Assembly (NCBI GenBank): GCA_046328505.1
Contig: JAXLWL010000004.1
Coordinates: 9,559-73,558, forward strand
DNA from: Anaerolineae bacterium
Lineage (GTDB): Bacteria > Chloroflexota > Anaerolineae > Epilineales > JAHCIE01
DNA: 64,000 nt
Direction: 5' to 3'
A program made the position numbers and the translations under genes. Position 1 is the stretch's first letter. Each line of letters starts with the position of its first letter. The notes below the pieces were generated by a model. It was not told where the DNA came from and did no database searches. It saw nothing but the letters and a program-made list of their open reading frames with translations. This document shows positions 16,789 to 48,982 of this stretch, in pieces.

Positions 16789-16851
16789 GACATGGTAAGC
16801 AAGCACCAGTTGCCAAAGACCGGACCAAGAAGCGGGGAGGAGTAGGGCGAG

Positions 16852-17754: not shown

Positions 17755-17882
17755 GAGACTTCGTGGAGCACAAGAAAGGAACCCGGCAGCGCAGGTACCG
17801 AGTTCCCGTAGTTCTCGTATGCCTTCTCCTCTTTCTCAGCCTCCACACCGCTTAATGTACCGAGTGCAGGTGCATTCTTACC

Positions 17883-18557: not shown

Positions 18558-18718
18558 GGGTCACGGTAGAGTTGAGGATCTGGTTTGTGCGACTTCGGTT
18601 ACTGCGCATGAACACAATCGGGCAACAAGGCGCGGGTAAGAGCCTCTTGTTTTACATCCTATAAAAGATCGCTGTCCGAATTCTAGCTTAACTCGCCGGT
18701 GTAGGCAAGAATGCGCTT

Positions 18719-21280: not shown

Positions 21281-22040
21281 GACGCCTCTCGTTGCATCAA
21301 ACACACAATACATTCACCTTTCCAAAGTATACGCGATTTGCTTTATGCACGGTAAAAGTTACTGCCGCGCATCGTGATCAACAGCCGTAAATACGTCGGA
21401 TGGCTAGGTTCCGCTTGAGGGCGAACGCATGTTGCCTGACGCATTGCTTTGAACATAGGTGACGATGCAGCAAATCAACAAGCAGGACGATCGGATGGAG
21501 TGACATGCGAGTCCAGTAGAGGTGCGAATCAATACGCTACGTGGAGGGAGCGCCATGTCCGATAGCCTCGCCCTCTCTGCTACTGTCCTTGATCGTGTTC
21601 ATACAATCAACTCTCCCGAAGACCTACACCGCCAGAAGGTTTTCACCTCAATCGTCGTCGGCATACTGTTGGAGCAGACCATCAGCATGCCTCAAGATAG
21701 TAGAGCGGTGAACCGGCGGTCTGCAGGCTCAGACGTTAGCTGATCTCGATGACTGTAACCGTGCTCTTCCCCTCACCACGAAATCCGCCACACTTCAACG
21801 AAATTCCCGTCGACGCGTTACCATTTGCCCCCCTTGTGCGTCTACTTATTGTAACTATATACTGTTTTCGCTACTCCGATCATCCTGCCGACGTTTCGTC
21901 GCGCGCCTCGTCCTCCGGCGATCAGCGCATTCTTACCCTCATCATCGCCTCGCTGATTTGCGCCCTGCTGTTCTCGGCTGACACGCCCAGGCTCTTCCGC
22001 CGTCTCGACCCCCGTCGGGACTGCCCTCCAGGAGGTCACC

Positions 22041-22724
22041 TTGGCTAGCTCGCCTCTTACCCCTAGTCGTGCCCTGCGCCGACCCCGCCGCATTGACATG
22101 CGCATCGTCGTCGGCGTCCTCCTCATGCTTGCCACCACCCTCGGCTCCCTCGCCTTCTGGACGGCCATCTCGGATGCCCGTCCCGTCGTGGTGGCGACCC
22201 ACGACCTGCCGGCCCTCGCCGTGCTCACCCCGTCCGACCTCACCGTCGCCCACGTCCGCATGGACGATACCCTCTACCAGGCTGCCATCCCTGGCGACGA
22301 TCTCAACACTCTCGTGGGTAAGCCCCTGTCCCAGCCGGTCTATGCCCAGGAGGTGCTGGTGCGCCCCCACATCGCGCCGCGTCCGGCCCTCGCCGCCGAC
22401 CAGGTCGCCATGACCATCGCCATCACGCCTGAGACAGGCGTCGGCGGACGGCTGCGGCCCGGCGACCAGGTGCAGGTGCTCGTCACCCTCAACAAGGGCA
22501 AGCCTGACGTGCGCTCGGCGGTCGTCCTCGACCGCGTCACCGTCTACGATGTCGGCTACGAGCAGCGAGTCGGCGCCATCAACACCGACAGCATCACCGG
22601 CAGCGGGGCGCAAGGCACGGCCCGGTGGCTGACACTGGCGGTGACCGCCGAGCAGTCGCGCCAGTTGGCCGAGGCGAAGGGCAGCGGCGACCTGGATGTG
22701 ACGCTGCTCCCGCCTCGGCGATAG
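22041..22724 (+). CDS. cpaB: Flp pilus assembly protein CpaB/RcpC (SAF domain)
   Basis: N-terminal TM helix. SAF-like region (TPSDLTVAHVRMDD...GKPLSQPVYAQEVL). First gene of the tad operon. Confidence 0.75.
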   Translation: MASSPLTPSRALRRPRRIDMRIVVGVLLMLATTLGSLAFWTAISDARPVVVATHDLPALAVLTPSDLTVAHVRMDDTLYQAAIPGDDLNTLVGKPLSQPVYAQEVLVRPHIAPRPALAADQVAMTIAITPETGVGGRLRPGDQVQVLVTLNKGKPDVRSAVVLDRVTVYDVGYEQRVGAINTDSITGSGAQGTARWLTLAVTAEQSRQLAEAKGSGDLDVTLLPPRR

Positions 22725-22734
22725 GGGCGGCGCC

Positions 22735-24162
22735 ATGAGCCAGTCCAATCCTGCGCAGCCTCAGCGGCTGCCCGATCCTCTCGACGCGCGCTGGCGCCTG
22801 GCCGTTGGGCTCGGCGACCCCGACCGTGAGCGCGCCCTGCTGCCGGCCCTCCGCGCCCTCGGCGACTTCGTCGTCGTCGAGCGCTGCCTGGCGGCCGACC
22901 AGCTGCTCGCCTGCCTCCAGGGGCGGCGCGCGGATGCGGCGATCCTGGCCTTCGACCTTCACCGGCTCAGCCAGGGCGTCATCGCCGACCTGCGCCAGAC
23001 GCGTGTCCCCCTCGTGACCCTGGCGCCCGACCCGAACCAGGAGCGGTGGCGCTCGCTCCCCGGCGTCGTCCTTCCCCTGGACGCCGACGCGGCGATGCTG
23101 GAGCGCGCCCTCACGGCAGCGCTGCGCGGCGAACGCCCACCGCCCGCCGAGCAAGACGAGCCGCTCACTCTGTCGCCGACGCAAGAGGCCCGGTCCCAGG
23201 CGCCGCCCGCCCTCTCTCTCATCGCCCTCGCCGGCGGCTACGGCAGTCCAGGGCGCACGACCCTCGCCCTCAACCTGGCGGCCGCCCTCGGCGCGGTCGC
23301 CCCCACGGTCCTGGTGGACGCCGACCTCAACAACCCCAGCCTGGCCATCCACCTCGACGCCGATCCCACTCGTAACCTCTCCATGCTGGCCCACGCGGAG
23401 CCCGACACGCCCCGCGCCTGGCGGCATGCCCTCGACGGGGAAACCCAGCCCCTAGCGGCCCGCAGCCCCCACGCGGTTGTCCTGTGCGGCCTGCCCAAGC
23501 CTGAGCTGCGCAGCCAGCTCACGCTGCCCTTCTTCGAGCGCCTGCTGGAGCATCTCCGCCTCCGCTATCGGTACGTCATTCTCGACGTCGGCGCGGAGGT
23601 ACACGGTTCCGAGTCCGCCCTGCACCGCGCCGCCCTGCAGCTGGCCGACCACACCCTCGTCATCGTCGCCGCCGACCTGGTCGGGCTGCGCCAGGGCCAG
23701 CGCGCCTTGACCTACCTGACCGACACCCTCGGGTTGCCCCACGAGCGTGTCGCCATCATCCTCAACCGCCACGACCGCCACCGCCATCACAGCCGGCCGG
23801 AGATCGAGTGGGCGCTCGACCGGCCAGTGGCCGGCGTCATTCCCTACGACCACGCCGCCGTGCAGCGCGCCCTTGACCGCCAGCAGCCCTTGCTTCTGGC
23901 CGGGAAGAGCCGCGCCGGCCGCGCCATCCTCGACCTGGCCGAACGCCTCCACGCCGGCCAGGTTGTCCTGCCCCCCGAAGCGCCTTCGAAGCGCCGCTTC
24001 CCCTGGCGACTCAACATTAAGAAGTCCAAGACCGGGCAGACGACGCCCGTTGAAGGAGACTTGCATGGCCACGTCCCTATCCCAGATGAGCCCCTGGCCG
24101 AGGGGCAGCTACGATCCAACGGTCGAGCGCGCCCTCCGCGCCGAGGTCCGCGAGGCCGTTAG
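22735..24162 (+). CDS. cpaE: Flp pilus assembly protein CpaE/TadZ (receiver-like N-domain plus ParA/MinD-type ATPase)
   Basis: Deviant Walker A IALAGGYGSPGRTTLALNLAAAL. Followed by the CpaF gene. Confidence 0.8.
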   Translation: MSQSNPAQPQRLPDPLDARWRLAVGLGDPDRERALLPALRALGDFVVVERCLAADQLLACLQGRRADAAILAFDLHRLSQGVIADLRQTRVPLVTLAPDPNQERWRSLPGVVLPLDADAAMLERALTAALRGERPPPAEQDEPLTLSPTQEARSQAPPALSLIALAGGYGSPGRTTLALNLAAALGAVAPTVLVDADLNNPSLAIHLDADPTRNLSMLAHAEPDTPRAWRHALDGETQPLAARSPHAVVLCGLPKPELRSQLTLPFFERLLEHLRLRYRYVILDVGAEVHGSESALHRAALQLADHTLVIVAADLVGLRQGQRALTYLTDTLGLPHERVAIILNRHDRHRHHSRPEIEWALDRPVAGVIPYDHAAVQRALDRQQPLLLAGKSRAGRAILDLAERLHAGQVVLPPEAPSKRRFPWRLNIKKSKTGQTTPVEGDLHGHVPIPDEPLAEGQLRSNGRARPPRRGPRGR

Positions 24163-25393
24163 CCGCCTGCTCAGTGACACGCAGTGGCTGACGCCCAGCG
24201 CCGCCGACGAGGCGCGCATCCGCGCCCTCATCCACGAGCACGTCGTCGCCTACCAGCGCCGCGCCGCTACGGCTAACACCGGCCCTCCTCTTCAACCCCG
24301 AGGCGGTCGAGCAGCATCTCTTCGATGGCCTGCTGCGCATGGGCATCCTCCAGCCGCTCATGGACGCGCCGAGCGTCGAGGAGATCATCTGCAACGGCCC
24401 GCAGCGCATCTTCGTCATCGAGGACGGGCAGAAGCGTCTCATGAGCGACCTGTTCTTCGACGACGACGAGGAGCTGCGGCAGCTCGTCAAGCGCCTGGTC
24501 GGGCCCCTGGGCCGCCGCCTGGACGAGTCCGCTCATGGTGGATGCGAGGCTGCTCAACGGGGCGCGGCTCAACGCCGCCATCCCGCCGGGCGACGACCCG
24601 CTGGTGCTGCCTCACCATCCGCAAGTTCACCTTGCGCGCCCACTCCCTGGAGCAGCTCGTCGAGTTGCGAACGCTGCCCGAGCACGGCGGCGCAGTTCCT
24701 GGACGCCGCGGTGCAGGCGGGCGTCAACATCCTCGTCAGCGGAGCAACCGGCGCCGGCAAAACGACGATGCTCAACGCGCTGGGCGCCTCCATCGCGTCG
24801 CTGGACGAGCGCGTCGTGACGATTGAGGAAGTGGCTGAATTGCAGCTCGACCGCCAGCTCCCCGACTGCGTCTCTCTACAGGCGCGAGCGCGAGCAACGT
24901 CGAAGGCGTGGGCGAGATCCGCATCCGTGACCTGGTCAAGAACGCCCTGCGTATGCGGCCGACGCGGATCATCGTCGGGGGAGTGCGCGGCGCGGAGGCG
25001 CTGGACATGCTGCTGGCCATGAACACCGGCCACGAAGGCTCCCTCGCCACCATCCATGGCAACTCGCCCCGCGACGCCCTGGACCGGCTGGTGACCCTGG
25101 CGATGATGGCTGAGGAGCGGCTGTCCAACGAGGCCCTCACGAAGATGGTGGCGCGCACCATTGAGCTGGTGCTCCAGGTGCGCTTCGAGCCGCGGACGGG
25201 CCAGCGGCGGCTGGTGAGCATCTTCGAGGTGACGGGGCTGGAAGGCGAGGTGATCACCGGCAACGACATCTGGGCGCTGGACGAGAAGAGCGGCCGCCTC
25301 GTCTGGACCGGCATCCAGCCGCGCTGCCTGACCAAGCTGGCCGCGCGGGGTATCCCGTATACCTTCGCGCCGACGCGCGGGCCGTCCGACTGA
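24065..25393 (+). pseudogene. cpaF: cpaF/tadA (Flp pilus assembly ATPase, VirB11/GspE family) disrupted by about five +/-1 frameshifts
   Basis: CpaF-like sequence is readable only by switching frames near 24270, 24530, 24605, 24680 and 24885. Examples: MATSLSQ...EARIRALIHEHVVAYQRRAA / LFNPEAVEQHLFDGLLRMGILQPLMDAPSVEEIICNGPQRIFV / MVDARLLNGARLNAAIPPGDDPLVL / TIRKFTLRAHSLEQLVELRTLPEH / [33 protein letters not shown]...[10 protein letters not shown] / [52 protein letters not shown]. Walker A and the His box are present but lie in different frames. Confidence 0.75.
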
Positions 25394-25730
25394 CACTTTC
25401 CTGCTACTTTCCCGGTTGCGTGTCCAGGAAAGTGGCAGGAAAGTCAGGAAAGCCCGCATTGGAGCCTCACTTTCCCGGCAGCGCGTCCAGGAAAGTGGCG
25501 GGAAAGCCGGAGAAACACACCTTGGAGCATCACTTTCCCGGCAGCGGGTCCGGGAAAGTGATGGGAAAGCAGGAAAAGCACGCGTTGGAGCTCCACTTTC
25601 CCGGCAGCGGGTCCGGGAAAGTGGCAGGAAAGTCGGGGCAGAGCAGTTTGCCGTCGATGCAACCGCCAAGTTCGCTCCACTTTCCCAACTCGTGGTCCGG
25701 GAAAGTGGCAGGAAAGCGCCGGGAAAGTGG
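25394..25730. repeat. five tandem copies (period 63 bp, one of 84) of a unit containing an 11-bp-arm palindrome CACTTTCCCGG-N8-CCGGGAAAGTG
   Basis: Palindromic cores at about 25405-25432 (variant), 25468-25497, 25531-25560, 25594-25623 and 25678-25707, with an extra half-site GGGAAAGTGG at 25721-25730. Each core is followed by a conserved GCAGGAAAG..TTGGAGC segment. Intergenic between cpaF and tadB. Confidence 0.85.
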
Positions 25731-25766
25731 CGTCTGGTACACTAGGGACAGGAGGGTGGGTTCAGC

Positions 25767-26624
25767 ATGATACCAATTCTACTCTCAGTTGGTTTAGGGT
25801 TGGCCGTCTTCTTCGTCTACGACGGGCTGACGCGCCCACCTACGCCCCAGGTGGAGACGCGAGAACGAACGCGGCTCGACGGGTTCCTGCTGCGGGCCGG
25901 TCTGCCGGATGTCAAGCCCCGCGAGTTCGCCTTGTTCTCTCTGGCCTGCAGCTTGGCCACCGCCATCGTCAGCCAGATCCTCCTGGGCTGGGGCATCGTC
26001 AGCCTGCTGGCCCTCCTGTTCGGCCTGGCGGCGCCCCTCGCCTACTACGCCCACCGCCACGATAGCCGCCGCGCTCAGGTCCAGGCCGCCCTGGTCGAGG
26101 CCATCGCCCAGCTCCGCGATGCCATCCGCAGCGGCCTCTCGGTTCAGGAGGCGCTGGTCGGTCTGGCGCGCGTCGGGCCAGAGGCGCTGCGGCCTGAGTT
26201 CGTCACGCTCGTCCGGGATATGCAACTCGACGGTGGTGAAGCGGGGCTGGTCGCCATGCGCGACCGCCTCGCCGACCCGCTGTTCGACATCGTCGCCGCC
26301 ACCCTCATCCTCAACGACCGGCTCGGTGGCCGCAACGTCAGCCAGGTGCTCGACGAGCTGGCCGAGACGACGCGGGCGCAGCTGCGCGTCCAGGATGAGC
26401 TGCGCGCTCACCAGGCTCAGACAGTGCTGTCCGCCCGAGTTGTGGCCGTCATGCCCCTGATCGTGCTGATCATCATTCGCCAGATGAACCCGCGCTACCT
26501 GGCCATCTTCAACGACTGGTCGGGCCAGGTCATCCTAGCGCTGTGCGTCCTGAGCATCGCCATCGGCTACGGGGCCATGCTCTGGATCACGCGCCTGCCG
26601 GCCGAGCGCCGCATCTTGAGGTGA
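25767..26624 (+). CDS. tadB: Flp pilus assembly inner-membrane protein TadB (T2SS-F domain)
   Basis: 285 aa with an N-terminal TM segment, a cytoplasmic helical domain and C-terminal TM segments. Position and architecture fit TadB. Confidence 0.75.
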   Translation: MIPILLSVGLGLAVFFVYDGLTRPPTPQVETRERTRLDGFLLRAGLPDVKPREFALFSLACSLATAIVSQILLGWGIVSLLALLFGLAAPLAYYAHRHDSRRAQVQAALVEAIAQLRDAIRSGLSVQEALVGLARVGPEALRPEFVTLVRDMQLDGGEAGLVAMRDRLADPLFDIVAATLILNDRLGGRNVSQVLDELAETTRAQLRVQDELRAHQAQTVLSARVVAVMPLIVLIIIRQMNPRYLAIFNDWSGQVILALCVLSIAIGYGAMLWITRLPAERRILR

Positions 26625-26628
26625 CGCC

Positions 26629-27603
26629 ATGCCTTTCCATTTCCACCTGTCGAGTCCGCCCGTCGCCGTCATTCTCTTGCCCCTCCTCTTCAGCCTGGGC
26701 GCCTACCTCATCCTCATGGCGCAGCCCATCGGTCGGCCGCGGCCTGACTTGAAAGAACGCCTGCGCCGCCTGGACGTGGACGAGAGGATGCGCGAGCAGA
26801 TGAGCCAGCCCATCCGCCGCCCCATCTTCGCCTCGCGCTGGCTGGAGGCCATCCTGCGACCTATCCTCGACGACGTCGGGCGGCTCGTGCGCTCGGTGCT
26901 GAGCCTATTCGGGCTCGGCGGCGGACGCCGGTTGGAGCGCAAGCTGCACATCGCGCGGCCCGAGGTCGAGATCTCCCAGTTCTTCGGCGAGAAGCTCGCC
27001 GCCGGGCTGATCGGCCTGGCGATCTTCCCGGTCATGAATGCCCTGGGCCTCCAGCCGTTCGGGACGTGGCCGACCTGGCTGTGGGGTGTCGGCTTCCTGG
27101 TCGGCTTTCTCAGCCCCGATTGGGACCTGGAGCGGCGGCTGGCCGAGCGGCGCATCGACGTCCTGATGGAGTTGCCGACCGTGCTGGACATGCTCACCAT
27201 CGCGACATCGGCAGGGCTGGCCCTGGAGCAAGCCCTCATCCTCGTCGCGCGGGAGAGCCAGGGCCTCGTCGCCCAGGAGCTGCAGCACGTAGTGCGCGAG
27301 ATGGCGCTGGGTCAGCGTTCCCTCGACGGCGCCCTGTCCGACATGGCCGAACGCAACGATGTGCCGCAACTGACGACCTTCGCCAACCACGTGCGCGCCG
27401 CCTACCAGCAGGGGACGCCTCTCATCCAGACACTGCGAACCCAGGCGGTGAGCCTGCGGGAGCAGAAGCGACTGCGGATTGTGGAAGAAGGGGGGAAGGC
27501 GAGTGTCAGGATGCTCTTCCCCGTGGCCCTCTTCATATTACCGGTCCTCTTCGTCGTACTCCTGCTGCCGGCGGTCTTCGAGCTGCTCAAGCTCGGGCGA
27601 TAG
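26629..27603 (+). CDS. tadC: Flp pilus assembly inner-membrane protein TadC (T2SS-F domain)
   Basis: 324 aa paralogous architecture immediately after tadB. Confidence 0.75.
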   Translation: MPFHFHLSSPPVAVILLPLLFSLGAYLILMAQPIGRPRPDLKERLRRLDVDERMREQMSQPIRRPIFASRWLEAILRPILDDVGRLVRSVLSLFGLGGGRRLERKLHIARPEVEISQFFGEKLAAGLIGLAIFPVMNALGLQPFGTWPTWLWGVGFLVGFLSPDWDLERRLAERRIDVLMELPTVLDMLTIATSAGLALEQALILVARESQGLVAQELQHVVREMALGQRSLDGALSDMAERNDVPQLTTFANHVRAAYQQGTPLIQTLRTQAVSLREQKRLRIVEEGGKASVRMLFPVALFILPVLFVVLLLPAVFELLKLGR

Positions 27604-27635
27604 GCAGGAGAGGAACTGCACAAGGAGGTGAGGCA

Positions 27636-27857
27636 ATGCTGTTCATTGTGTCGTTGTATCTGAGTTGGCTGCATAGCTATTTTCACAGGCTCGTCCTGCG
27701 CGTCTGGCGCGACGAGGAAGGGGCGTCGCTGGTGGAGTACGCCATCCTGGTGGCGCTCATCGCCATCGTCGCCATTGCTGCCGTCCAGGCCCTCGGCAAC
27801 GGGATCACCGGCGTCTTCCAGAACATCCTGGGGCGCATTCAAGGCCTGGGACGGTAG
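27636..27857 (+). CDS. flp: Flp/Fap-family type IVb pilin precursor
   Basis: ATG at 27636 with AAGGAGG 8 nt upstream. 73 aa MLFIVSLYL...EEGASLVEYAILVALIAIVAIAAVQALGNGI carries the Flp processing/hydrophobic motif (G-x4-EY). Hidden inside the spurious ORF 27066..27857. Confidence 0.75.
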   Translation: MLFIVSLYLSWLHSYFHRLVLRVWRDEEGASLVEYAILVALIAIVAIAAVQALGNGITGVFQNILGRIQGLGR

Positions 27858-27860
27858 GAA

Positions 27861-28289
27861 TTGGAGACTGGAAGCGTGTCGTCCTTGTATGCATCTGTTG
27901 TGGCCGTCGGCATCTTCGCAGCTGCCACGGTCACCGACATCCGCTCGCGTCGCGTGCCGCGCTGGCTCACGCTTGGCGGCATCCTACTCGGCCTGGCAGT
28001 CGCCGCCATGAGCGGGTCGGAGGCCCTACTTGCTAGCCTCGCTGGCCTGGTCGTCGGCGGGGTACTTCTGCTCCCCTTTGTCCTCAAAGGCGGGATGGGT
28101 CTGGCGGATGCGCTCCTGCTAGCAGCCGGTGGGGCGTGGCTGGGCTGGCAGCCCATTCTCCATGTCGCGCTGTGGGGCGCGCTGGCCGGTGGCATCCTGG
28201 CCCTCGTGGCGCTGGCCCGCGGGCAGCGCTCCCTTCCCTACGCGCCGGCCCTGCTCGTCGGCGTCCTACTGGCGTTGGCGGTACGATAG
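27861..28289 (+). CDS. cpaA: prepilin peptidase (A24 family, CpaA/TadV-like)
   Basis: 142 aa polytopic membrane protein with conserved Asp residues (ATVTDIRSRRVP...LGMGLADALLLAAGGAWLG). Confidence 0.7.
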   Translation: METGSVSSLYASVVAVGIFAAATVTDIRSRRVPRWLTLGGILLGLAVAAMSGSEALLASLAGLVVGGVLLLPFVLKGGMGLADALLLAAGGAWLGWQPILHVALWGALAGGILALVALARGQRSLPYAPALLVGVLLALAVR

Positions 28290-28302
28290 GAAGGTCGCCG
28301 TC

Positions 28303-28725
28303 ATGAACAGGCTCGAACGCTGGCTTGAATTTCATCAACGGTTGGAGATCGGCGCGGCGATGGTCGAAACAGCGGTTGCCTTTCCCCTGCTCATTATCGT
28401 CGCGCTGGGTCTCGTTCAGTTCGCCCTGTACGCCCACGCCCAGAACGTGGTTGTCGGCGCAGCCCAGGATGGAGCTCGCGTGGCGGCTGCCGAGGACCGC
28501 CACATCGAGGACGGGCTTGCTCGCGCCCACGACCTGCTACGGGCCGGACTCGGGCCGAGCGCCGAGGGGGTGAGCGTGCGCGGCGTGGACGGCGGGGACG
28601 TCGTGATGGTCGAGACGCAAGGCCGGCTGCGGCTTATCCTCCCGTGGGTGGGTGACGCCTCGCTGCCGCTCCACGCGCAGGCTATGATAAACAAGGAGGC
28701 GTTTCATGCTAGCCCGTCGCGCTAA
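28303..28725 (+). CDS. TadE-like pseudopilin
   Basis: Start refined to MNRLERW.... TadE N-terminal motif ERWLEFHQRLEIGAAMVETAVAFPLLIIVALGLVQF. Confidence 0.6.
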   Translation: MNRLERWLEFHQRLEIGAAMVETAVAFPLLIIVALGLVQFALYAHAQNVVVGAAQDGARVAAAEDRHIEDGLARAHDLLRAGLGPSAEGVSVRGVDGGDVVMVETQGRLRLILPWVGDASLPLHAQAMINKEAFHASPSR

Positions 28726-29155
28726 GTCCGCACGCTCCTGCGAGCGCGCTTCGGCGCTCGTCGAGGTTGCCCTCGTCTTGCCCCTGCTGCTTGTGCTCGC
28801 CTTCGGTGTCGTGGGTGTGAGCCGTGTCGTCCAGGCGCGGATGGGCGTGAGCGCCGTGGTGCGTGAGGCCGCTCGATCGGGCGCACTGGCGCAGGAGCCA
28901 GGCGAAGCCGTCGCCCGAGGGCTTTCGGTGGGACATGCGGTCGCCGAGGGGTATGGTCTGACCAACGGCTCGTTGGCGCTGGGTGTAGACGCAGGAGGTT
29001 TCGGGCCTGGTGGGAGTGTGCGGGCGAGTGCGGGTTACACAATATCGCTGGGCGATCTTCCGCTCCTTAGTTGGGCCAGCGTGAATGTGGCGAGCGAGCA
29101 CGTCGAGCGTGTGGACCTCTACCGCTCGCGGTGGACATCTGGAGGGAGGCCATGA
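28706..29155 (+). CDS. TadE-like pseudopilin
   Basis: RSCERASALVEVALVLPLLLVLAFGVV matches the TadE N-terminal motif. Confidence 0.6.
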   Translation: MLARRAKSARSCERASALVEVALVLPLLLVLAFGVVGVSRVVQARMGVSAVVREAARSGALAQEPGEAVARGLSVGHAVAEGYGLTNGSLALGVDAGGFGPGGSVRASAGYTISLGDLPLLSWASVNVASEHVERVDLYRSRWTSGGRP

Positions 29156-29619
29156 GGCGGTTGACAACGACACCGCTGAGAAGGCTTGACTTCCTGCTGG
29201 CTCGCGATGCCGGCCAGGCAATTGTGTGGGTCGCGGTGATGCTGCCGCTGTTCCTGGCGGTGATTGGCCTATCCATCGACGGCGGGTTGGTCTTCAGCGC
29301 CCGCCGCGAGTTGCAGAATGTCGCCGATGCGGCAGCTCGCGCCGGGGCGATGCAGATTGACGAGCGGGTCTACCGCGAGAGCTTCGGGCAGCGCGTCGTT
29401 CTCGATCCAGGCGCAGCGCAGGCAGCCGCCGTTGATTACATCGGGATGCAGCCAGGTCATCCCTCGGCATCCGTCAGCGCCGGCCCACAAGGGGTGCGGG
29501 TCGACACGGCGCGCGACGTGCCGACGAGCTTCTTGAGGCTCGTCGGGATTGAGACGGCGCGGGTGACGGCCACGGCCATCGCCGAGGTGCGCCACGGCAT
29601 TGAGCGGGGGGAACGGTAG
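29152..29619 (+). CDS. TadG-like (Tad_N domain) pilus assembly protein
   Basis: Start refined to MRRLTTT..., with GGAGGGAGG RBS. ARDAGQAIVWVAVMLPLFLAVIGLSIDGGLVFSARRELQNVADAAARAG matches the TadG N-terminal domain. Confidence 0.55.
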   Translation: MRRLTTTPLRRLDFLLARDAGQAIVWVAVMLPLFLAVIGLSIDGGLVFSARRELQNVADAAARAGAMQIDERVYRESFGQRVVLDPGAAQAAAVDYIGMQPGHPSASVSAGPQGVRVDTARDVPTSFLRLVGIETARVTATAIAEVRHGIERGER

Positions 29620-29628
29620 GAGGTAGGT

Positions 29629-30309
29629 ATGGATGTCAAGGACATGAGACCGGAAACCGAGACGGCGCGGGCGCGCCGGCCGTTCTGGATTGTCGCCGTC
29701 ACCCTGTTCGCCATCGTGCTCGTTGGGCTGCTGGCAGCGTACGGGCTGGACCGGCGATTCCGCGCGCCCGTGGGTGTCGAGCCGGCGCCACCGGGTAGCG
29801 CCTCTAGCCAAGCGCGCGCGCCAGGGACGCCGCCAACGGCTCTGCCCGCCGCGCAGCCTTCAGCCGTCGTCGTTGCACCGACGGTTGCCATCACACCGAC
29901 ACTCCCCGCTGGCTTGCGACTGGCCGACTCGCCCCTGGAGCGCGAGATCGAGGCCGCCTACCTGCACTACTGGCAGGTTCTCGCTGAAGCCAACCTGACG
30001 CTCGACACGTCTCGACTGCCCGAAGTGGCAGCCGATAAGGAGCTTGTCCAGGCGCAGCAGCAGGTCAACGACCTCAAGGCACAAGGCAGGGCCGCCAAGC
30101 TGGATGTTGAACATCGGACGGCCTTCGCGAAGGTCACTCCGACCCAGGCTGTCATCGCCGATGAGTACCTGAACAAGAGTGTGTTTGTGGATCCGGTCAC
30201 AAAGGAGGAGCTGAAGACTTCGTCGCCGCCGACCGTCGAGAAGCTATCGTTCACGATGCGGAAGATCGACGGGCAATGGAAAGTCGTGGAGGCGCTGCGC
30301 TATGATTAA
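29629..30309 (+). CDS. membrane-anchored hypothetical protein (tad-locus accessory)
   Basis: N-terminal TM helix (FWIVAVTLFAIVLVGLLAAYGL) and Pro/Ala-rich linker. Overlaps the next gene. Confidence 0.45.
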   Translation: MDVKDMRPETETARARRPFWIVAVTLFAIVLVGLLAAYGLDRRFRAPVGVEPAPPGSASSQARAPGTPPTALPAAQPSAVVVAPTVAITPTLPAGLRLADSPLEREIEAAYLHYWQVLAEANLTLDTSRLPEVAADKELVQAQQQVNDLKAQGRAAKLDVEHRTAFAKVTPTQAVIADEYLNKSVFVDPVTKEELKTSSPPTVEKLSFTMRKIDGQWKVVEALRYD

Positions 30310-31408
30310 GCATCTCTTTCCATCACTGGTTCTCGCTTTGCTCGTAACCGCTTTTCTTTCTACCTCCGTTCATGCCGACGGGCCAAACCCCGACCGGCCG
30401 CAGCCGCATGTCAATCGCGATCATCTGAACGTTCAGACCCGTGTCGAGAGCCGCCGCGACGGAGTCTATGTTGAGATTTCCGTCCAACAGTCAACGCCAG
30501 GGGAAGACCGGCCGAGTCCGCATGCGCGTGCTACCGATGAACCCTCGAACAACACTGCATCTGCAACGACTGCTACAAGTTCGGCTCAGCCGGTGAGCAC
30601 GGGACCGCAGGAGCGCTACTGGAGCAACAACACCGGGATCTACCGCGAGACGGTAGACGGTCACGTAATCCAGCTCACGCCGCCACCTATTGGCACAGCC
30701 AGCCTGAGCGCCTGGGACACCGCGCGGGCTAACCACCCCGACCAGACGCCGTATCTCCTGTACGTGGACGACCAGTACAACGGCGTCGTCTGGATCCCCC
30801 AGTCGCCCCAGAACGGCAACGTTCGCATCGAGGCGATGCCCTCCGCCCAGCCCTCGCGTCCCTCAGGTGATGACAACAGCACGGACGCGCGCGAAGTCGC
30901 CCTCAGCGCCCTGGGCCACGTGCGCCTCCCCGACATGCACGTCCGCGTGAACCCGTCCCTTGGCCTCGTCAACCTGCCGGGCTGGTTTTGGGTCGACGGC
31001 TACGACGGTCGCCCCTTCGGCGTCAGCCGCACCGTCCATGTCCCGCCCGAGATTGGCGACGATGTCCCCGATACCGTCGTCCCTGCCGACGACCCCCGTC
31101 GGCGCGGCACGAGTTTCACCGTCAGCGTGCGGATCTGGCCGAGCCAGTATGAGTGGAACTTCGGCGACGATCACATCCTGGTGACCGACTCCCTGGGCAA
31201 GCCCCACCCTGCCGAGTCCGACATCCAGCATACCTACGAGACCTCTTCCCTGGGTTTTGCCAACGGCTTCCCCGTTCGGCTGAGCGTCACCTTCCACGCC
31301 GAGTACCGCGTCAACGGTGGCCCGGCTGAGGCGCTGCCCTCGATCACCCAGGTGGTCGAGTACGGCTACCGCGTGCAGGAAGCGCAATCGGTTCTCACCG
31401 GTCATTGA
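30302..31408 (+). CDS. secreted hypothetical protein (tad-locus accessory)
   Basis: Signal peptide [25 protein letters not shown]. No recognisable domain. Confidence 0.45.
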
Positions 31409-31428
31409 GTGGGAGCGAGGAGGAAGTC

Positions 31429-34400
31429 ATGCAGACGACCTACGTAGACATGGACGAGCAGCGGCGCGACCGTGTGAGCCTCCTGGGGCTGATTGTCGGC
31501 CTGGTGGGCGTGGGCGTCTTCCTCTATAAGGTGCCCGGCCCGCCCCACTTGCCCGCGACGTGGCCGACGTGGGCTGGCATCGTCACGACCCTGCAGGGCA
31601 GCTATCTCCCCCTGGATGGCGTCATCTACGTGCTCATGATGCTCGCCTGGCTGCTCTGGGCCTGGCTGGCTTTCTCGCTTGTCCTGGAGCTGATTGTCGT
31701 AACCGTCGAGAAAGTCTCACAGGGCGCGGCGTGGGCGCGAAGCCTACGCGCTGCGGCTGACCATGTCACAGCGCCCATCGTGCGCCGCGTGGTGCAGGGC
31801 GCCGTCGTGGCAACCGTCGTGGTCAACCTCGTGGGCCGGTCGGGGACGCCGGCGAACGCCGCACCTATGGAGACAACCCCGATTGTGCTCCAGCAGCGGG
31901 CGCCAACAGATGCTGCGCCTCCGGTGGTCGAGCAAGAGGCCGAGCACAATCCGCGCGTCGTCGAGTACACGGTGCAGTCGGGCGACAGCCTGTGGGCCAT
32001 CGCCGAGCGCTTCTACGGCGACGGCGACGCCTATCCCCGCGTCGTCGCGGCCAACGTCGGCCGCGCCATGCCGAACAATGGGCGCTTCACGCCGGCCGGC
32101 GTCATCCACCCTGGCTGGGTGCTGGTCATCCCGCTCCCCGACGAGGCGCCGGCCGAGCACAGGCAGCGGACCACCTACGTCGTGGCAAAAGGGGATACAT
32201 TGTGGGGCATTGCCGGGAGGTTCTTGGGCGACCCGACCCGCTGGCCGGAAATCTTCGAGCTGAACCGCGGCGTTGCCCGCCATCCCCAGACGGGCTGGAC
32301 GCTCACGAACCCTAACCTCATCTGGCCGGGCCTGCCCCTCCAGATACCTGTCGAGGCGCCATCTGAGCAGCCCGCGCCCCTGCCCCCGGCTCCTGTTGTC
32401 GAGCATCCAGTGGAGACCTCGCCAGTTCCCGGCCTCCAACCTGGTACGATTACAACGGCAACGCCTCGGCCCGCAGAGCCTAAGCAAGTCGTCGTCGAAA
32501 CGCCCGTGGCAACACCGGTTCCCGTCGCCACGCCCTCGCCGGTCGTGCACGAGCAGGCTCTACCGCCTATAGTGTGGGGGGCAGTGGGGCTGATGGTCGC
32601 CGCCGGCATCGCTGGCCTGGCCTTGCGGCGTCGGGTGCGGCGCAGCGTGGCCGAGTCGCTGGCCCCCGACCCGGCGGAGGTCATGCCGCCCCACGGCGAC
32701 TTCGTCGACGCCGAGTTCGCGCGCCTGCTGCGCCACCGGCTGCAGAATGGCGAGGTCGAGGCGGCCGTTCTGGTTGCCGAGCAGACGCTGCGCTTCCTAC
32801 GCGATGAGGGCATAGAGGGAGTCTCCCTCATCATGGCCGGCCAGGGCGCCAAGTCAGTCAACCTGATTCTGTCCACGAGCTTACAAGACAAGGAGCGTAT
32901 TATCGCCTTGGCGCCTAAGATGGGCGCGCGCCTCGGCGGAACGGTCAAGGCGGAGACGACGTGCGACGACGATATCGCCCTCGAGGTATCGGAGCCCAAG
33001 CTCGCCGATGTCGCGTCTGCCTCTAAGCGCGCCCACGAGTTGCCCCGCCTTGTCGCCGTCGGGCTCTTGCCTCAGCAGACCACAACCTACATCAACTGGC
33101 CGAAGGCGGGTCATGTCCTTATCGCGGGGACCCCAGGCGGCGGGACGGACATAACGCTCACTAGCCTCATGTGCGCGTTGGCGACCCGCTATCACCCGGA
33201 CGCTCTCCGGCTGTACACCGTTGCCAGCCGCCGCGCCCTGCCACACCAGCTGTTCGATCTGCCACACGGGGTTGAGATCGCCGATTCGTCCGACGCAAGA
33301 GGCGTGCAGGGAATCCTGGAGCAGGTGGAGGCCGAGCTTGTTCGACGCATGAAAGCCGCCGCCGAAGGAGAAGCGACCCGGGAGCCAGAGATTGTGATTG
33401 TGCTGGGCGAGCTCGCCGACGTAGAGGACATTGCAGCGGTGGACATGATCGGAACGCACGGCACGGCGCATGGTATCCAGCTTCTTGCCGCCACAAGCCG
33501 CGTGGACGAGATCCCCGACGGGACGTTGGCGCTCTTCTCCACGCCGCTGGTTCTGCGACTACTCGACGACGAGACCAGCATTCGCGTCTTGGACGACAGC
33601 GCTGCCGCCGACCTGGGGCGCGGTGACATGTTCCTGTCCCTGGACAGCCGCTGGCCGATCCAGATGCGCGGCCTGCGCGTCTCACCGGAGCACCTGGATC
33701 AGCTGGTTACAGTGATGCGTGAGGCCTATGGGGAGCCGACACCGGCCCCATCCCTGGCAACCGCCGACGAGAACGACGCCGAGATAGTTGCCGACGGCGA
33801 GGAGCTTTCCGTGCAGTCGCCGAACGGGCACGCGCCAGCGGCTGTACCGGCCAAACCAGTCGAGGCTAAGCCCGACCTTCCGGTGGACGCGAGCGCAGCG
33901 GAAAACGACCTTGTTGAGCCTGTCACACTAGCGCTCCCGGCGCTTAACGGCCACACGCCACCGATACCCCTGCCGAGCGACGCCTCAGACGCGCCGCCTG
34001 AGGTCGACGGGGTTGAGGAGGAGCCGCCGGTGTTCATCCAGTGCTTCGGCAGCCTGGTCGTCCGATACGCGGGGAAGACCCTGCAGGCCAGGGCAGAAGG
34101 GCGCGCCATCCTCAAGTCGTGGGAGGTGATCGCCTACTTGGCGTGCTATCCACCCGAGGGCGTGACCGTGGATCGGCTAATCGCCGATGTCTGGCCCGAC
34201 ACTGACGGCGCTGACAAGAACGTGCTGCACATCGCGATGTACCGAGCACGCAAGGCACTGCAAGAGCAAGTCGAGAGTGTCAGCGACGACGTCATTCGCC
34301 TGGACCGCGATGGGACGTGTCTCCTCGACCGCGCGTTGGCCACGTCGGATGTCCACCAGTTCATGGCGCTCGTCTCGCGGGCACAAAGGCTTCCGTCTGC

Positions 34401-34854
34401 CCAAGCCAGGGCCGCATTGGAAAGAGCGCGGGACCTGTACCAGGGGGACCTGCTCTCCAGCCCTCAGGCGCGAACGTTCCACTGGCTTGACAATCGCGGG
34501 GCGAGCGGGTTGACGCTTCGCGAGACCTACCGCATCGAGTACCAGCGAGCCATGTGCCAGTTGGCGGGGCTCTACCGCGAAGACGGCGAGTTCCAGCGGG
34601 CTCAGGCGCTGCTGAAGGGCATGCTGCAGCAGGAGCCAACGCTCGAAGATGTCGTGCGCGAGCTGTATCGTCTCTACGCGCAGATGGGCGACCTGGCCGG
34701 GTTACGGCGGGAAGACCGTCGCCTGCGTCTGGCGCTGCAGTCCGCCTACTACGACCCGAACAACCCCGACGACGACCCCGGCCTCTACTCGCCCGAAGCC
34801 GAGACCGTCGCGCTATATAATGAGATACACAGGGCCCTGAACCCGATAAGCTAG
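31429..34854 (+). CDS. giant multidomain protein: N-terminal TM helices, two LysM domains, Pro-rich linker, TM helix, FtsK/SpoIIIE-like P-loop domain with degenerate Walker A, C-terminal BTAD (SARP-type transcriptional activator) domain
   Basis: LysM domains [20 protein letters not shown]... and [20 protein letters not shown].... FtsK-like [27 protein letters not shown] (no Walker Lys) and [12 protein letters not shown] (Walker B-like). BTAD-like [25 protein letters not shown]...[10 protein letters not shown]. Start at the ATG at 31429 with GAGGAGGA upstream. Confidence 0.6.
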
Positions 34855-35024
34855 GCCAATCCTGCCGTCCCACAACCTTCTATTCCTGTCCCCGCCCAAG
34901 CGGCTATGCTACTCGTGCATAACCGCTTGGTTGACTGTGTGACGTACCAGCCTATAATCAGCGGGTAGTGAGGGATGACCCGCTGACGGGTCTGTCTGAG
35001 CGTTGAGTGGCGGGGGGAAGGCGT

Positions 35025-38000
35025 ATGGACCTGGAAGGGTGGAAGCAAGCGACGAGAGAGCGGCTGCACGGAATGGCGGAGATCCTCCGGCGCAAGACAC
35101 CGGGCGCGGTGTACGGAGGGCTATCCGCAGCGGCTATACTGCCCATTATCAGCGCGCTAAACCAGGGCGACCTCATGGCGGTCCTGGCGTTTGGAAGTCT
35201 CCTCGGCAGTGTTGGCGCTGGCCTCATCACCAACCAGATTCAAGCGTGGAAGGACAAGAGCGACACGGAGTTGGCCGAGGAGCTGACGCAGAAGGCCGAA
35301 ACCGACGCCAAGTGGCGCGAGGCGCTGGACAAACTGATGCAGGAATTGGAGACACCGCGCCTTGCCCAGGAGACTCTCGCCCCCGGCGGCCGCGCCTGGC
35401 TCGCCGAGGCTCTCAACCAGGAGCTGACGCGTCTGGGTAGCAGCGTTCGCGTCCAAGGCAACGGGAACGTCGTCGCTGCAGGCAACATATCGGATAGCGT
35501 CATCAATTCGGGCCGCGTCGAAGCGCGCGAGGGTAGTGTCGTCATCATAGCGCAGCAGGTCTCGCGCGATATAGTGGCGAGCCTCAAGCCGGAAGGTCTG
35601 TCTGCGAGCGAACTCCAGGCCATCACCGAGCCCTACCTCAAGTACCTCATCACCCGCTACCGCTACCTCGACTTCAAGGGTATGGGCATGGCAGACCGCG
35701 TCCCATTGCGCCTCCCGATTGAAGATATGTACATTCCTCTTCGCGCACGCGTCGAGATACCACGATGGGAGCGGTCAGGTTGGCAGGACTTTGAGGCTTT
35801 GTCGGATCGTGAAGCGCAGTTGCTTGGAAGCCTGGAAACACCGGAGGAATCAAGATACACTACGGAGCGCTTCGGTGGATCCCCATGGCTCCTCGATCTT
35901 CTGGGGCGCCACGACGGTCTAGTCATCGTTGGTGACCCTGGGGCGGGCAAGACGACCTTCCTCAAGCATCTGACACTCTCCTTGGCGCTAGGTCATGGCG
36001 AAAGAGTTGGCTTAGCTAATCGTCTGCCCGTCCTAGTCCCGCTCTCGGCCTACGCTAGGGCTCTCGAGCTAGAGGACGTTGCTCTCCAGGAGTTCCTGGG
36101 GACGTATTACCGTAACCAGGGTACTGACCTATCGATTGACGCCCTCCTTGCGGCAGCGCTGTCCGACGGGCGCGCCCTGGTCATGTTTGATGGCCTCGAC
36201 GAGGTCCAGGAGATTACGCGCCGCGGTCTGGTACTGGAACGAGTGACCGCCTTCTACGCGCTGCACCGCCAACGCGGCAACAAGTTCATCCTCACTAGCC
36301 GAATCGTGGGCTACAAAGACGTGCGCCTGACGGCCGAAGGGCTCGAAGAGTGTACGCTGGTCGACTTCGACGAACGGGACATCCGCGAATTCATCAATAA
36401 GTGGACGTGTGCTGTGGAACAGGCGATCCACGGTCCGAGCGCATTTAGTCTCCGGCAGGCCGAGATCGAGGGGAATGAGCTGCTTGACGCTATTGCGCGC
36501 AATCCAGGTGTCCGCCAACTCGCTGCTAACCCCCTCCTGCTTACCATTCTGGCCCTCATGAAGCGCCAGGGTGTTGCCTTGCCCGAGCGCCGGGTCGAGC
36601 TATACGACAAGTACGTCGAGACGCTACTGCGCCATTGGAACCTGGCGCGGGGGTTGGACCGACGCGCAGCGCGGGACCTGGACGTGGTAGAGACGCTAAG
36701 AGTCATAGCGCCGCTTGCATTGTGGATGCAAGCGACAAGTCCAGGGCGTGGATTGGTTAAGCAAGCCGATCTACAGCGCCAGCTGATTGCCATCTACAGT
36801 GAGCGCGGGGAAGCAGACCCGGAGCGCGCTGCACGTCAGTTTCAGCACGACGTTCGCGACCACGCCGGGCTGCTGCTGGAGCGTGGTCCACGTGAGTACG
36901 GCTTCATCCACCTGACGTTCCAGGAGTATCTGGCTGCGGTGGCTATTGCTCAACATGGGCAGGTGGACGTGGCTCCAGTAGTGCGTACTCTGGCTGCGCA
37001 TATGGATGATGCCAGCTGGCGCGAAGCTGTACTCCTGACTATCGGCTATCTTGGTCTCATACAGCAAAGGGACGAAGCTGCGGGCGATGTGCTGCAGCAG
37101 CTTGTAGCTAGCCCTGAAGCTTCGCCTGCAGCTGTCGTATTAGCAGGTGAGGCGGCAGTTGATGCCGGACCAGGCGGAGTGTCAGTAAGCGGGCGTCAGG
37201 CAGTGGCTGGGGCGCTTCTGGCCGTCATGCGTGATGACGAGCATGCAGACGCTCTAACGCGAGCTGCGGCAGGTGATGCCCTGGCGAAGCTCGGCGATCC
37301 GCGATTCCGTGCCAACGCGTGGTTCCTGCCCGACGAGCCGCTACTGGGCTTCGTCAAGATTCCATCGGGTGGACTCACAATGGTCGAAGGCAGTACCGAG
37401 AACGTTGTCGATGTCCCTACGTTCTTCATTGGCCGCTACCCGGTAACGGTGGCCCAATTTGAGGCATACGTGGACGCGTCCGGCCAAACCCCCGTGAACA
37501 AACAGAGCCTTCGCGATCCCGTTAACCGTCCGGTGCGCTATATCAGCTGGAGCGAGGCGATGAATTACTGCCGCTGGTTGGCGGGAACGTTGCGGGTGTG
37601 GGCCGACACGCCACAGCCACTAGCCGATTGGCTGCGCGGGACCGGCGAGCGACCGCCCGGACGTATCACACTGCCGAGCGAAGCGGAATGGGAGAAGGCA
37701 GCGCGAGGAACGGCTGAACATACGTATCCCTGGGGCGAGCAGCCCAACCCAAATCGAGCTAACTACCGTGACACAAAGATTGGTGACACAAGTTCGGTCG
37801 GCTGTTTTCCTAGTGGTGCCAGTCCATACGGTATTGAGGAGATGGCTGGGAATGTTTGGGAGTGGACGCGCAGTATTCTAAAGAATTACCCTTATGACCC
37901 GAAAGACGGGCGTGAGGACGAAGCGATAGAAGGGAATCGCGTGGTGCGCGGGGGAGCGTTCATTGATAATGCCACCAGCTTGCGCTGCTCATTCCGCGGC

Positions 38001-38063
38001 AGGTATAGTCCCTTCTATGGAGGCAACGATCAGGGGTTTCGGGTCGTATTTTCCAATCTCTGA
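35025..38063 (+). CDS. STAND NTPase: N-terminal ~145-aa helical domain, G/N-rich strand motif, NACHT domain, C-terminal FGE-sulfatase (SUMF1-like) domain
   Basis: Walker A LVIVGDPGAGKTTFLKHL, Walker B LVMFDGLDEV. FGE-sulfatase signature RYPVTVAQFEAYV...LPSEAEWEKAARG...SPYGIEEMAGNVWEWT...VVRGGAF...GFRVV. Shared motif VQGNGNVVAAGNISDSVINSGRVEA at 35448-35531. Confidence 0.85.
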   Translation: MDLEGWKQATRERLHGMAEILRRKTPGAVYGGLSAAAILPIISALNQGDLMAVLAFGSLLGSVGAGLITNQIQAWKDKSDTELAEELTQKAETDAKWREALDKLMQELETPRLAQETLAPGGRAWLAEALNQELTRLGSSVRVQGNGNVVAAGNISDSVINSGRVEAREGSVVIIAQQVSRDIVASLKPEGLSASELQAITEPYLKYLITRYRYLDFKGMGMADRVPLRLPIEDMYIPLRARVEIPRWERSGWQDFEALSDREAQLLGSLETPEESRYTTERFGGSPWLLDLLGRHDGLVIVGDPGAGKTTFLKHLTLSLALGHGERVGLANRLPVLVPLSAYARALELEDVALQEFLGTYYRNQGTDLSIDALLAAALSDGRALVMFDGLDEVQEITRRGLVLERVTAFYALHRQRGNKFILTSRIVGYKDVRLTAEGLEECTLVDFDERDIREFINKWTCAVEQAIHGPSAFSLRQAEIEGNELLDAIARNPGVRQLAANPLLLTILALMKRQGVALPERRVELYDKYVETLLRHWNLARGLDRRAARDLDVVETLRVIAPLALWMQATSPGRGLVKQADLQRQLIAIYSERGEADPERAARQFQHDVRDHAGLLLERGPREYGFIHLTFQEYLAAVAIAQHGQVDVAPVVRTLAAHMDDASWREAVLLTIGYLGLIQQRDEAAGDVLQQLVASPEASPAAVVLAGEAAVDAGPGGVSVSGRQAVAGALLAVMRDDEHADALTRAAAGDALAKLGDPRFRANAWFLPDEPLLGFVKIPSGGLTMVEGSTENVVDVPTFFIGRYPVTVAQFEAYVDASGQTPVNKQSLRDPVNRPVRYISWSEAMNYCRWLAGTLRVWADTPQPLADWLRGTGERPPGRITLPSEAEWEKAARGTAEHTYPWGEQPNPNRANYRDTKIGDTSSVGCFPSGASPYGIEEMAGNVWEWTRSILKNYPYDPKDGREDEAIEGNRVVRGGAFIDNATSLRCSFRGRYSPFYGGNDQGFRVVFSNL

Positions 38064-45186: not shown

Positions 45187-45297
45187 CTCTCTTCCCTAAC
45201 AGCTGCATGTTTCTTGACAGAGCGTAACCGTCTCCCACCCTCAGCGTTCTAATTAGTACACCTTGTGGACAGCAATGCGGCTGGAGGGAGAGAGGGA

Positions 45298-48900
<3,603 letters not shown>

Positions 48901-48982
48901 CAGACTCGATAAACACTTCATCGAATTTCGAAGTAGACAACAGCCAATCCCTATGCGGCTCCGAAGTCCAGGGAACTGTTCG

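Follow-up and report, generated by a model that had tools for sequence, protein, structure and literature searches.

In a stretch of 64,000 nucleotides (nt) from an Anaerolineae bacterium (GCA_046328505.1, contig JAXLWL010000004.1, positions 9,559-73,558, forward strand; hereafter the window), we analyzed the last gene of a tad pilus operon. Its product, hereafter the giant protein, combines transmembrane (TM) helices, two LysM domains, an FtsK-like domain with degenerate Walker motifs, and a C-terminal SARP module. Our preferred reading, to which we assign a probability of about 0.5, is that the giant protein is a membrane-integrated, wall-anchored one-component activator of its own Tad operon. 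Two features favor membrane-tethered activation over a purely structural or separate secretion role, namely, a full SARP module including its winged helix and a SARP-type direct-repeat promoter layout before tadB. Coordinates are window positions, amino acid (aa) numbering refers to the 1141-aa product from ATG 31429, L001, L005, L085-L087, L089, and L091 are labels of related loci that we compared, and the features are collected in Table 1.

The open reading frame (ORF) listing gave an unbroken frame from TTG 31405 to 34854, corresponding to 1149 aa. An earlier note on this DNA had described a single 1149-aa ORF beginning at 31429; the ORF itself stands, and the mismatch is harmless, as 1149 aa fits the TTG whereas a start at 31429 gives 1141 aa. 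ATG 31429 is located 7 nt after a Shine-Dalgarno sequence (AGGAGG) and 20 nt past the stop of the preceding gene, and the resulting product is a 100% match to NCBI entry MFN8473872.1 from Anaerolineae bacterium, titled "MAG: LysM peptidoglycan-binding domain-containing protein" (MAG, metagenome-assembled genome). Since five small indels distinguish tadA of this operon from a 95%-identical counterpart, the giant gene might likewise be suspected of being a frameshift fusion of separate genes or a pseudogene in a degenerating locus, but we consider this extremely improbable: its 1141 codons run without interruption, equal architecture and length are found across dozens of genomes, and the ratio of nonsynonymous to synonymous substitution rates (dN/dS) relative to the 88%-identical orthologue L085 is 0.17 for the whole protein and 0.08-0.19 per folded or membrane segment (LysM, 0.08; FtsK-like, 0.11; SARP, 0.15), compared with 0.57 for the linker. 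Thus, the giant ORF is neither a fusion artifact nor a decaying gene; about 90 homologue clusters have its architecture, and the recurrence of the full-length architecture in dozens of independent genomes refutes the artifact that the earlier note had itself allowed for.

A word-indexed search retrieved 133 homologues, about 80 of which are full length (~1000-1300 aa) with the same domains and derive mostly from Chloroflexota MAGs. When we searched aa 425-770 exhaustively with phmmer against 1.84 billion representatives, we obtained 91 clusters at E<=1e-30, a number that rose to 246 at E<=1e-10; the weaker matches were multi-FtsK-domain EccC-like giants with an intact GxxGxGK[ST]. A genome-contig scan with a 19-sequence alignment keyed on LysM motifs was less informative, since nearly all of its 80 loci represented unrelated LysM genes, with L005 alone being useful. 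Databases label family members just as LysM protein or SARP regulator. In the literature searched, we found no description of the LysM/FtsK-like/SARP combination, its topology, the family-wide pseudo-ATPase, or the Tad link, so that the description of this protein as unusual is a fair one. Each domain taken singly is already known, and the missing Tad link concerns Chloroflexota. Distant matches from Micromonospora and Acidimicrobiales were left out of the family, as they share mainly the SARP end and have no tad linkage. A label as a defense gene was also rejected, since the PADLOC match was a weak, generic P-loop one (mad8, E 3.6e-6), despite the neighboring defense island.

To describe the architecture, we identified domains with Pfam models at curated cut-offs, predicted TM helices by hydropathy, and assigned sides by the positive-inside rule; in addition, an AlphaFold2 model built on a 48-sequence alignment was compared with the PDB by Foldseek. 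The model has a mean predicted local distance difference test score (pLDDT) of 73, reaching ~85-94 in folded parts and falling to <50 in the stalk, the TM4 region, and aa 773-863. In the hydropathy analysis, Arg-rich segments follow TM2 and TM4, namely, a conserved cytoplasmic loop at aa 93-120 (family consensus GAAWVRxLR..D..T.P.VRR) and the motif RRRVRR on the cytoplasmic face, and these segments place the LysM pair and stalk outside and everything past aa 400 inside. Both LysM domain matches fall into the extracytoplasmic part between TM3 and TM4, and peptidoglycan binding is predicted for them; the spacer (aa 295-395) is 24% Pro. N-terminal TM helices, two LysM domains, a Pro-rich spacer, and a further TM helix, all of which had been read from the sequence before, are therefore borne out by Pfam and by the hydropathy-based topology prediction. 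The 95-aa linker further downstream probably serves as a flexible tether joining the FtsK-like domain to the SARP module.

In the region between TM4 and this linker, the Pfam model FtsK_SpoIIIE (PF01580) matched aa 554-666 with 45 bits (cut-off, 24), and PDB sequence matches of the P-loop domain were to EccC5 and FtsK. Consistently, the top Foldseek matches were FtsK motor domains (2iut, E 5.8e-17; 6t8o, 6t8b, and 2ius), with a TM-score (target) of 0.5-0.55 over ~380-420 aligned columns, a length indicating that both the alpha and beta FtsK subdomains are present. Other matches included the conjugative coupling protein TcpA (1.8e-12), ATPase domains 2-3 of EssC/EccC (~1e-11), and HerA. The E-values of the domain and fold matches are much too low to be due to chance. 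The FtsK/SpoIIIE-type fold proposed earlier therefore holds at the level of both sequence and fold, and the domain searches did not reassign the region. Although the PF01580 match and the alpha/beta FtsK fold are present, neither Walker motif conforms to its signature (GxxxxGK[ST] for Walker A, hhhhDE for Walker B): in the giant protein, Walker B has Gly for Asp with the Glu retained, and the FtsK-type "TR" arginine (R706) is also retained. The Walker A Lys was present in none of the 115 distinct aligned family members (consensus AG-x-P-G-x-G-[AVT]-[DE]). Among the 68 cluster representatives of the family, 54 have A, V, or T in place of the Lys, and 48 have an acidic residue (D or E) directly after it; the Walker B Asp position is Gly in 39 and remains Asp in 7, whereas the Glu is retained in 58 and R706 in 64.

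Since the Lys is missing family-wide, its absence cannot be put down to a local mutation, and the domain represents a long-standing, conserved pseudo-ATPase, which strengthens the earlier view that a Walker A without lysine is "probably catalytically dead." Given the loss of the Lys together with an acidic residue at the Mg-ligand position, we infer that the loop would be unable to bind nucleotide. The low dN/dS of the FtsK-like domain (Table 1) indicates purifying selection and, together with its conservation, a maintained pseudo-enzyme. Judging from the sequence, the giant protein cannot be filed as an FtsK translocase, because its Walker motifs fail. Neither Ftsk_gamma nor FtsK_4TM yielded a Pfam match in the giant protein at E<=1, and NCBIfam EccC/EssC models gave partial, sub-threshold matches only (43 bits versus a cut-off of 346, single domain), so that the full-length equivalog with three tandem ATPase domains characteristic of type VII EccC/EssC is absent.

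These findings bear on the idea that the giant protein is a derivative of FtsK, TraB, or a coupling protein that holds DNA at the Tad base by its winged helix, for uptake or for transfer of mobile elements. Its best fold matches are indeed DNA-bound FtsK motors and the coupling protein TcpA, its TM helices, alpha/beta motor, and C-terminal winged helix are arranged similarly to those of FtsK, some related tad loci lie beside conjugation genes (L087 with TrbL and a VirB4-like gene; L002 with TcpC) and others on plasmids, and transformation of Micrococcus luteus requires Flp pili (PMC4322843). However, the Walker motifs exclude a motor function, since a functional Walker A is missing from every family member and the Walker B Asp from most of them; moreover, its winged helix is of the promoter-activating OmpR/SARP type and is coupled to a BTAD, with no Ftsk_gamma match as noted above, and the window is without conjugation genes. 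We therefore regard this idea as very unlikely.

The C-terminus of the giant protein was previously noted as a SARP-type BTAD. Pfam confirmed the BTAD (PF03704; aa 974-1088, 26.4 bits, cut-off 22.1), which also matches tetratricopeptide repeat (TPR) models and is present in most homologues, but a DNA-binding winged helix that completes the SARP had been missed. This OmpR-type winged helix was matched by Trans_reg_C at aa 896-947 with 25.4 bits versus a cut-off of 26.2, and is thus borderline by sequence and clear by fold: Foldseek aligned the C-terminus to EmbR (2fez, 1.1e-7) and to AfsR in a transcription initiation complex (8hvr, 9.4e-7; TM-score (target), 0.69-0.70), over ~280 columns spanning both winged helix and BTAD. 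The "WPD" motif and the recognition helix are conserved among homologues. Accordingly, the model indicates that the C-terminus is a complete SARP module, with the winged helix just before the BTAD, and by domain content the giant protein qualifies as a SARP, albeit in an unprecedented context.

The giant gene is the last of the tad operon in the window, and the next gene downstream has its own near-consensus sigma-70 promoter (TTGACT-16-TATAAT, 34931-34958). We compared eight full-length loci with usable flanks (the window, L001, L005, L085, L086, L087, L089, and L091), and in all eight the giant gene takes an end position in a tad operon, being last in seven and divergent in one. Gene order is as in the window in L085, L086, L087, and L005, where giant proteins are 88%, 54%, 43%, and 39% identical to ours, respectively; in L085, L086, and L087, the loci with gene calls, the giant gene is separated by 22 bp from the gene before it. 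The L089 giant (34% identity) is tad-adjacent, the L091 giant (24%; LysM, Trans_reg_C, and BTAD) is last in its tad operon, and the divergent L001 giant (36%) adjoins cpaB. LysM membrane proteins of 1000-1800 aa also end the tad operons of a Streptomyces linear plasmid, Brachybacterium, and a Chlorohelix plasmid, with the TM+LysM module alone being detectably homologous in profile comparison; homology of the cytoplasmic parts of the Streptomyces and Brachybacterium giants was accordingly dropped. Tad adjacency thus applies to 8/8 full-length relatives and 3/3 relatives sharing the N-terminal module only, and it does not extend to two distant matches whose similarity lies mainly at the SARP end. 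The earlier remark that this gene closes the tad locus is therefore correct and can be generalized, as the giant gene ends most related operons. The giant protein matched no Pfam or NCBIfam model of the named Tad families (TadA-G, TadZ, TadV, and RcpA-C), and it is the only DNA-binding protein conserved across these tad operons. Tad pili are encoded by ~1,234 of 3,780 Chloroflexota genomes, all without secretins (PMC12488501).

The two genes preceding the giant gene, which encode a bitopic and a secreted protein, are likewise present in L085, L086, L087, and L005; their products had no family match, and they are likely extracytoplasmic partners. All tad genes of the window are intact except tadA, which is split over two frames by five 1-2-bp indels within 600 bp (at ~24283, 24529, 24588, 24684, and 24886; net +3) relative to the 95%-identical L085 gene; either tadA is a pseudogene, or the assembly is error-prone at this point. 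In L001, the tad operon ends in a 1384-aa multi-FtsK-domain EccC-like protein (L001 1-1304, running off the locus), such that a live FtsK-type ATPase and a dead one share the locus.

To relate the SARP module to potential target sites, we considered the 373-bp spacer between tadA and tadB, in which three direct repeats (CGGGAAAGTGG, CAGGAAAGCGC, and CGGGAAAGTGG) precede tadB. Their GGAAAG cores start at 25700, 25711, and 25722, i.e., at a spacing of exactly 11 bp, and are followed after 9-10 bp by a -10-like TACACT (25738-25743), by AGGAGG (25750), and by the tadB ATG (25767); no sigma-70 -35/-10 pair was detected in the spacer. Published SARP promoters have direct repeats at a spacing of 11 or 22 bp, the 3' one being separated by 8 bp from a weak -10, and, as at tadB, they have no -35 (PMC10936776). 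The layout upstream of tadB matches this arrangement, which makes the repeats candidate binding sites of the giant protein. The spacer holds 12/23 GGAAAG and 6/18 CTTTCC of the 64-kb window, and triple 6-mers at exact 11-bp spacing form three clusters per 64 kb, one of them before tadB, as against 0.1 in shuffled sequences. In L085, L086, and L005, the sole triple 11-bp-phased cluster of the locus occupies the same position before tadB; three copies of CCGGGAAAG are present in L086, and the five copies of CCGGTAAGTG in L005 represent a drifted motif (GGTAAG), the recognition helix of the L005 giant protein differing as well. In L089, two clusters (TGTCACGCC) immediately precede the giant gene. 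A repeat cluster in L091 was unpersuasive, being GC-rich and far upstream.

Further upstream, the same spacer contains an array of 63-bp units, each comprising a palindrome built from the GGAAAG motif (ACTTTCCCGG-N8-CCGGGAAAGT) plus a GGAAAG pair spaced 11 bp. The array is conserved in L085, a single palindrome is left in L086, and no Rfam family was found in the spacer of the window; further binding sites may reside in these units. The window's remaining two triple 11-bp-phased clusters (13010-13048 and 2086-2113; e.g., CCTCAGGTTTG x3) are unrelated in sequence to GGAAAG and may be sites of another OmpR-type regulator.

Under our preferred reading of a tethered activator, the winged helices of the SARP modules would bind the GGAAAG repeats phased at 11 bp and would bring RNA polymerase to a promoter lacking a -35. 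The tadB promoter would then drive tadB, tadC, flp, and the minor pilin genes as well as the gene of the regulator, thereby creating a positive feedback loop. The giant protein would remain in the membrane, with the long tether allowing the SARP module to reach DNA, as in ToxR and CadC. The dead FtsK-like domain would neither bind nor hydrolyze ATP and may act as an oligomerization or docking module, plausibly as an FtsK-like ring, while the LysM domains could fix the protein in the wall beside the pilus machine or report the state of wall or pilus, thereby coupling pilin supply to the envelope. The "trans-envelope signalling or assembly scaffold" of the earlier note is compatible with the data, but it is under-specified, as the winged helix and the tadB repeats point to activation.

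A more elaborate version, which we consider unlikely, envisages an FtsK-like ring at the Tad base, held by LysM, from which six tethered SARP modules would engage the ~18 GGAAAG sites of the spacer, so that operon DNA would be tied to the machine as an assembly or surface-contact checkpoint and the state of pilus or wall would set pilin transcription. Such an arrangement could be likened to the flagellar FlgM checkpoint and to PilA-PilS feedback, here in one membrane protein derived from a retired DNA pump.

Several observations weigh against regulation by a tethered activator. The Trans_reg_C score is marginally below its Pfam cut-off; the repeats are weak in L087 (GAGTAA, GAGTAA, GGGTAG), and L001 has neither a tadA-tadB spacer nor a repeat cluster; the repeats belong to a palindrome array, which could instead be a repetitive extragenic palindrome-like element, form an RNA structure, or be bound by a different regulator; and we infer binding of the giant protein to the repeats from co-occurrence alone. 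With five indels in tadA, the system may moreover be inactive in this genome. Finally, since the actinobacterial and Chlorohelix plasmid relatives detectably share TM+LysM only, the conserved core function may be envelope-related and not transcriptional.

The last of these points would also suit a structural scaffold that spans the envelope in the secretin-less Tad machine of single-membrane bacteria and has no role in transcription, with LysM in the peptidoglycan, a pseudo-FtsK ring under the platform or on TadA/TadZ, and the BTAD as a TPR-like surface, in line with its matches to TPR models. The giant gene closes its operon, following the genes for minor pilins and two conserved extracytoplasmic proteins, and its TM+LysM module is the sole part detectably common to the tad-linked giants of the Streptomyces, Brachybacterium, and Chlorohelix replicons; furthermore, Chloroflexota Tad systems lack secretins, and LysM PilO-like proteins have been proposed as archaella anchors (PMC12488501). 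A pure scaffold, however, needs neither a winged helix nor a recognition helix, both of which are under purifying selection; it leaves the 11-bp-phased repeats at tadB unexplained; and a floppy 95-aa tether is better suited to reaching DNA than to rigid scaffolding. We hold a purely structural role to be rather doubtful, although scaffold and activator roles may coexist.

Table 1. Features of the giant gene, its tad operon, and the tadA-tadB spacer in the window
Feature	Position	Strand	Basis
Whole giant gene (1141 aa + stop)	31429..34854	+	ORF list; 100% identity to MFN8473872.1
N-terminal membrane module: TM1 (aa 16-36), TM2 (aa 64-92), TM3 (aa 121-139)	31474..31845	+	Hydropathy, conservation, model helices
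Two LysM domains (aa 177-235, 248-306), extracytoplasmic	31957..32346	+	Pfam E 3.5e-14, pLDDT ~80-89, dN/dS 0.08
Pro-rich disordered stalk (aa 307-378) and TM4 (aa 380-399)	32347..32625	+	Hydropathy, model
FtsK-motor-like pseudo-ATPase: alpha-like (aa 425-535) and RecA-like beta (aa 540-770)	32701..33738	+	Pfam, Foldseek, pLDDT ~90, dN/dS 0.11
Degenerate Walker A, AGTPGGGTD (aa 566-574)	33124..33150	+	Family alignments; Thr for Lys, Asp for Ser/Thr
Degenerate Walker B, IVIVLGEL (aa 655-662)	33391..33414	+	Aligned to EccC Walker B VIDEF
Disordered linker (aa 771-865), enriched in Pro, Ala, and Glu	33739..34023	+	pLDDT <50, dN/dS 0.57, composition
SARP module: OmpR-type winged helix (aa ~866-965) and all-helical BTAD (aa 974-1137)	34024..34839	+	Pfam, Foldseek, dN/dS 0.15
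Rest of tad operon	22041..31408	+	Gene calls and family searches
cpaB	22041-22724	+	
tadZ	22735-24162	+	
tadA (broken by indels)	~24065-25393	+	
63-bp unit array in tadA-tadB spacer	25406..25636 (and 25680-25731)	+	Repeat analysis; 3.6 copies, 83% match
Candidate operator/promoter of tadB	25698..25743	+	Phased repeats, -10-like; layout also in L085, L086, L005
tadB	25767-26624	+	
tadC	26629-27603	+	
flp (contains GASLVEYAILVALIAIV)	27636-27857	+	
Prepilin-peptidase-like gene (small A24-type)	27861-28289	+	
tadE	~28303-28725	+	
tadE-like	28706-29155	+	
tadG-like	29071-29619	+	
Conserved bitopic protein (226 aa, outside domain ~120 aa)	29629-30309	+	
Conserved secreted protein (368 aa, signal peptide, WNFGDD PKD-like motif)	30302-31408	+	

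Among known systems, SARPs such as AfsR, EmbR, ActII-ORF4, and DnrI resemble the giant protein in having an OmpR-type winged helix followed by a helical BTAD. However, known SARPs are soluble proteins with an N-terminal SARP module, the "large" ones appending NB-ARC/TPR or LAL and EmbR appending FHA, whereas in the giant protein the module is C-terminal and membrane-tethered, following LysM and a dead FtsK-like domain. The giant family, moreover, is found in Chloroflexota, and its linkage is to pili and not to antibiotic clusters. FtsK/SpoIIIE and Streptomyces TraB share an N-terminal TM part, a linker, an alpha+beta motor, and a C-terminal winged helix with the giant protein, and they provide its best structural matches (2iut and 6t8o); in contrast to them, the giant protein lacks the Walker A Lys, mostly has Gly for the Walker B Asp within its family, and has no gamma domain, and compared with FtsK it has LysM inserted in the outside loop and, as its sequence indicates, would be unable to translocate DNA. 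The closest sequence relatives of the P-loop domain are the D2/D3 domains of EccC/EssC, which act as regulatory units more than as catalytic ones, and multi-FtsK-domain giants are the nearest outgroup in the representative search. EccC-like proteins have at least three tandem ATPase domains and keep GxxGxGK[ST], whereas the giant protein has one domain and no Lys; no type VII secretion system genes were found in the window.

In FimV and TsaP, LysM links the filament machine to peptidoglycan. These proteins and the PilO-LysM of Litorilinea bear LysM like the giant protein, but have no cytoplasmic ATPase-like or DNA-binding domains; attachment of a filament machine to peptidoglycan by LysM has been proposed for Chloroflexota (PMC12488501). 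The one-component activators ToxR, CadC, and TcpP also have an OmpR-type winged helix held by a TM helix, with a sensor outside, and ToxR-type activators bind multiple sites and tether DNA to the membrane (PMC10629549). In ToxR, however, the winged helix is N-terminal, so that the order is opposite, and ToxR-type proteins, which occur in Proteobacteria, lack BTAD, ATPase-like domain, and LysM.

As for the surroundings of the operon, a heavy-metal cluster (14284-21313; two HMA P-type ATPases, a cation diffusion facilitator, and DUF305) lies just upstream, and G+C rises from ~0.60 to 0.64-0.72 over the tad operon (22-34 kb), a jump that suggests its horizontal acquisition. Downstream, the promoter at 34931-34958 is followed by the first of two paralogous NACHT-type STAND NTPase genes (35007-38063 and 38257-41439), each with a C-terminal FGE-sulfatase domain. 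The region 42991-60970 resembles a defense island, with NB-ARC+TPR (42991-45186), an SNF2 helicase with NOV_C (45265-48900), a 5-hmdU DNA kinase (49974-51716), a DUF1156 protein (55046-58171), and a STAND NTPase (58571-60970); BREX (PglZ), MmeI, and Bil-type genes likewise flank the tad loci of L085-L087. Several related tad loci adjoin conjugation-type genes or sit on plasmids (L087 20550-23714; L002 1-91; L003 172-1677; L004 1075-2184), with neighbors including TrbL, a type IV secretion system pilin, PrgI, TraC-like, VirB4-like, TcpC, and NlpC/P60 or lytic transglycosylase genes, which hints that related Tad systems travel on, or serve, mobile elements.

The building, anchoring, and regulation of Tad pili in single-membrane bacteria are poorly known, even though about a third of Chloroflexota genomes encode Tad pili without secretins (PMC12488501). 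The giant family is a conserved, unnamed extra component of Chloroflexota tad operons, whose present annotation as "LysM peptidoglycan-binding domain-containing protein" conceals its FtsK-like and SARP content. If the activator reading is true, SARP activators would come to include, besides the soluble regulators of antibiotic production in actinomycetes, a membrane-tethered form from a different phylum, the FtsK-like domain would be a clear case of an FtsK-type motor retired to a noncatalytic module, and the protein, its operator, and the pilin genes would constitute a compact, testable circuit joining wall or pilus to transcription.

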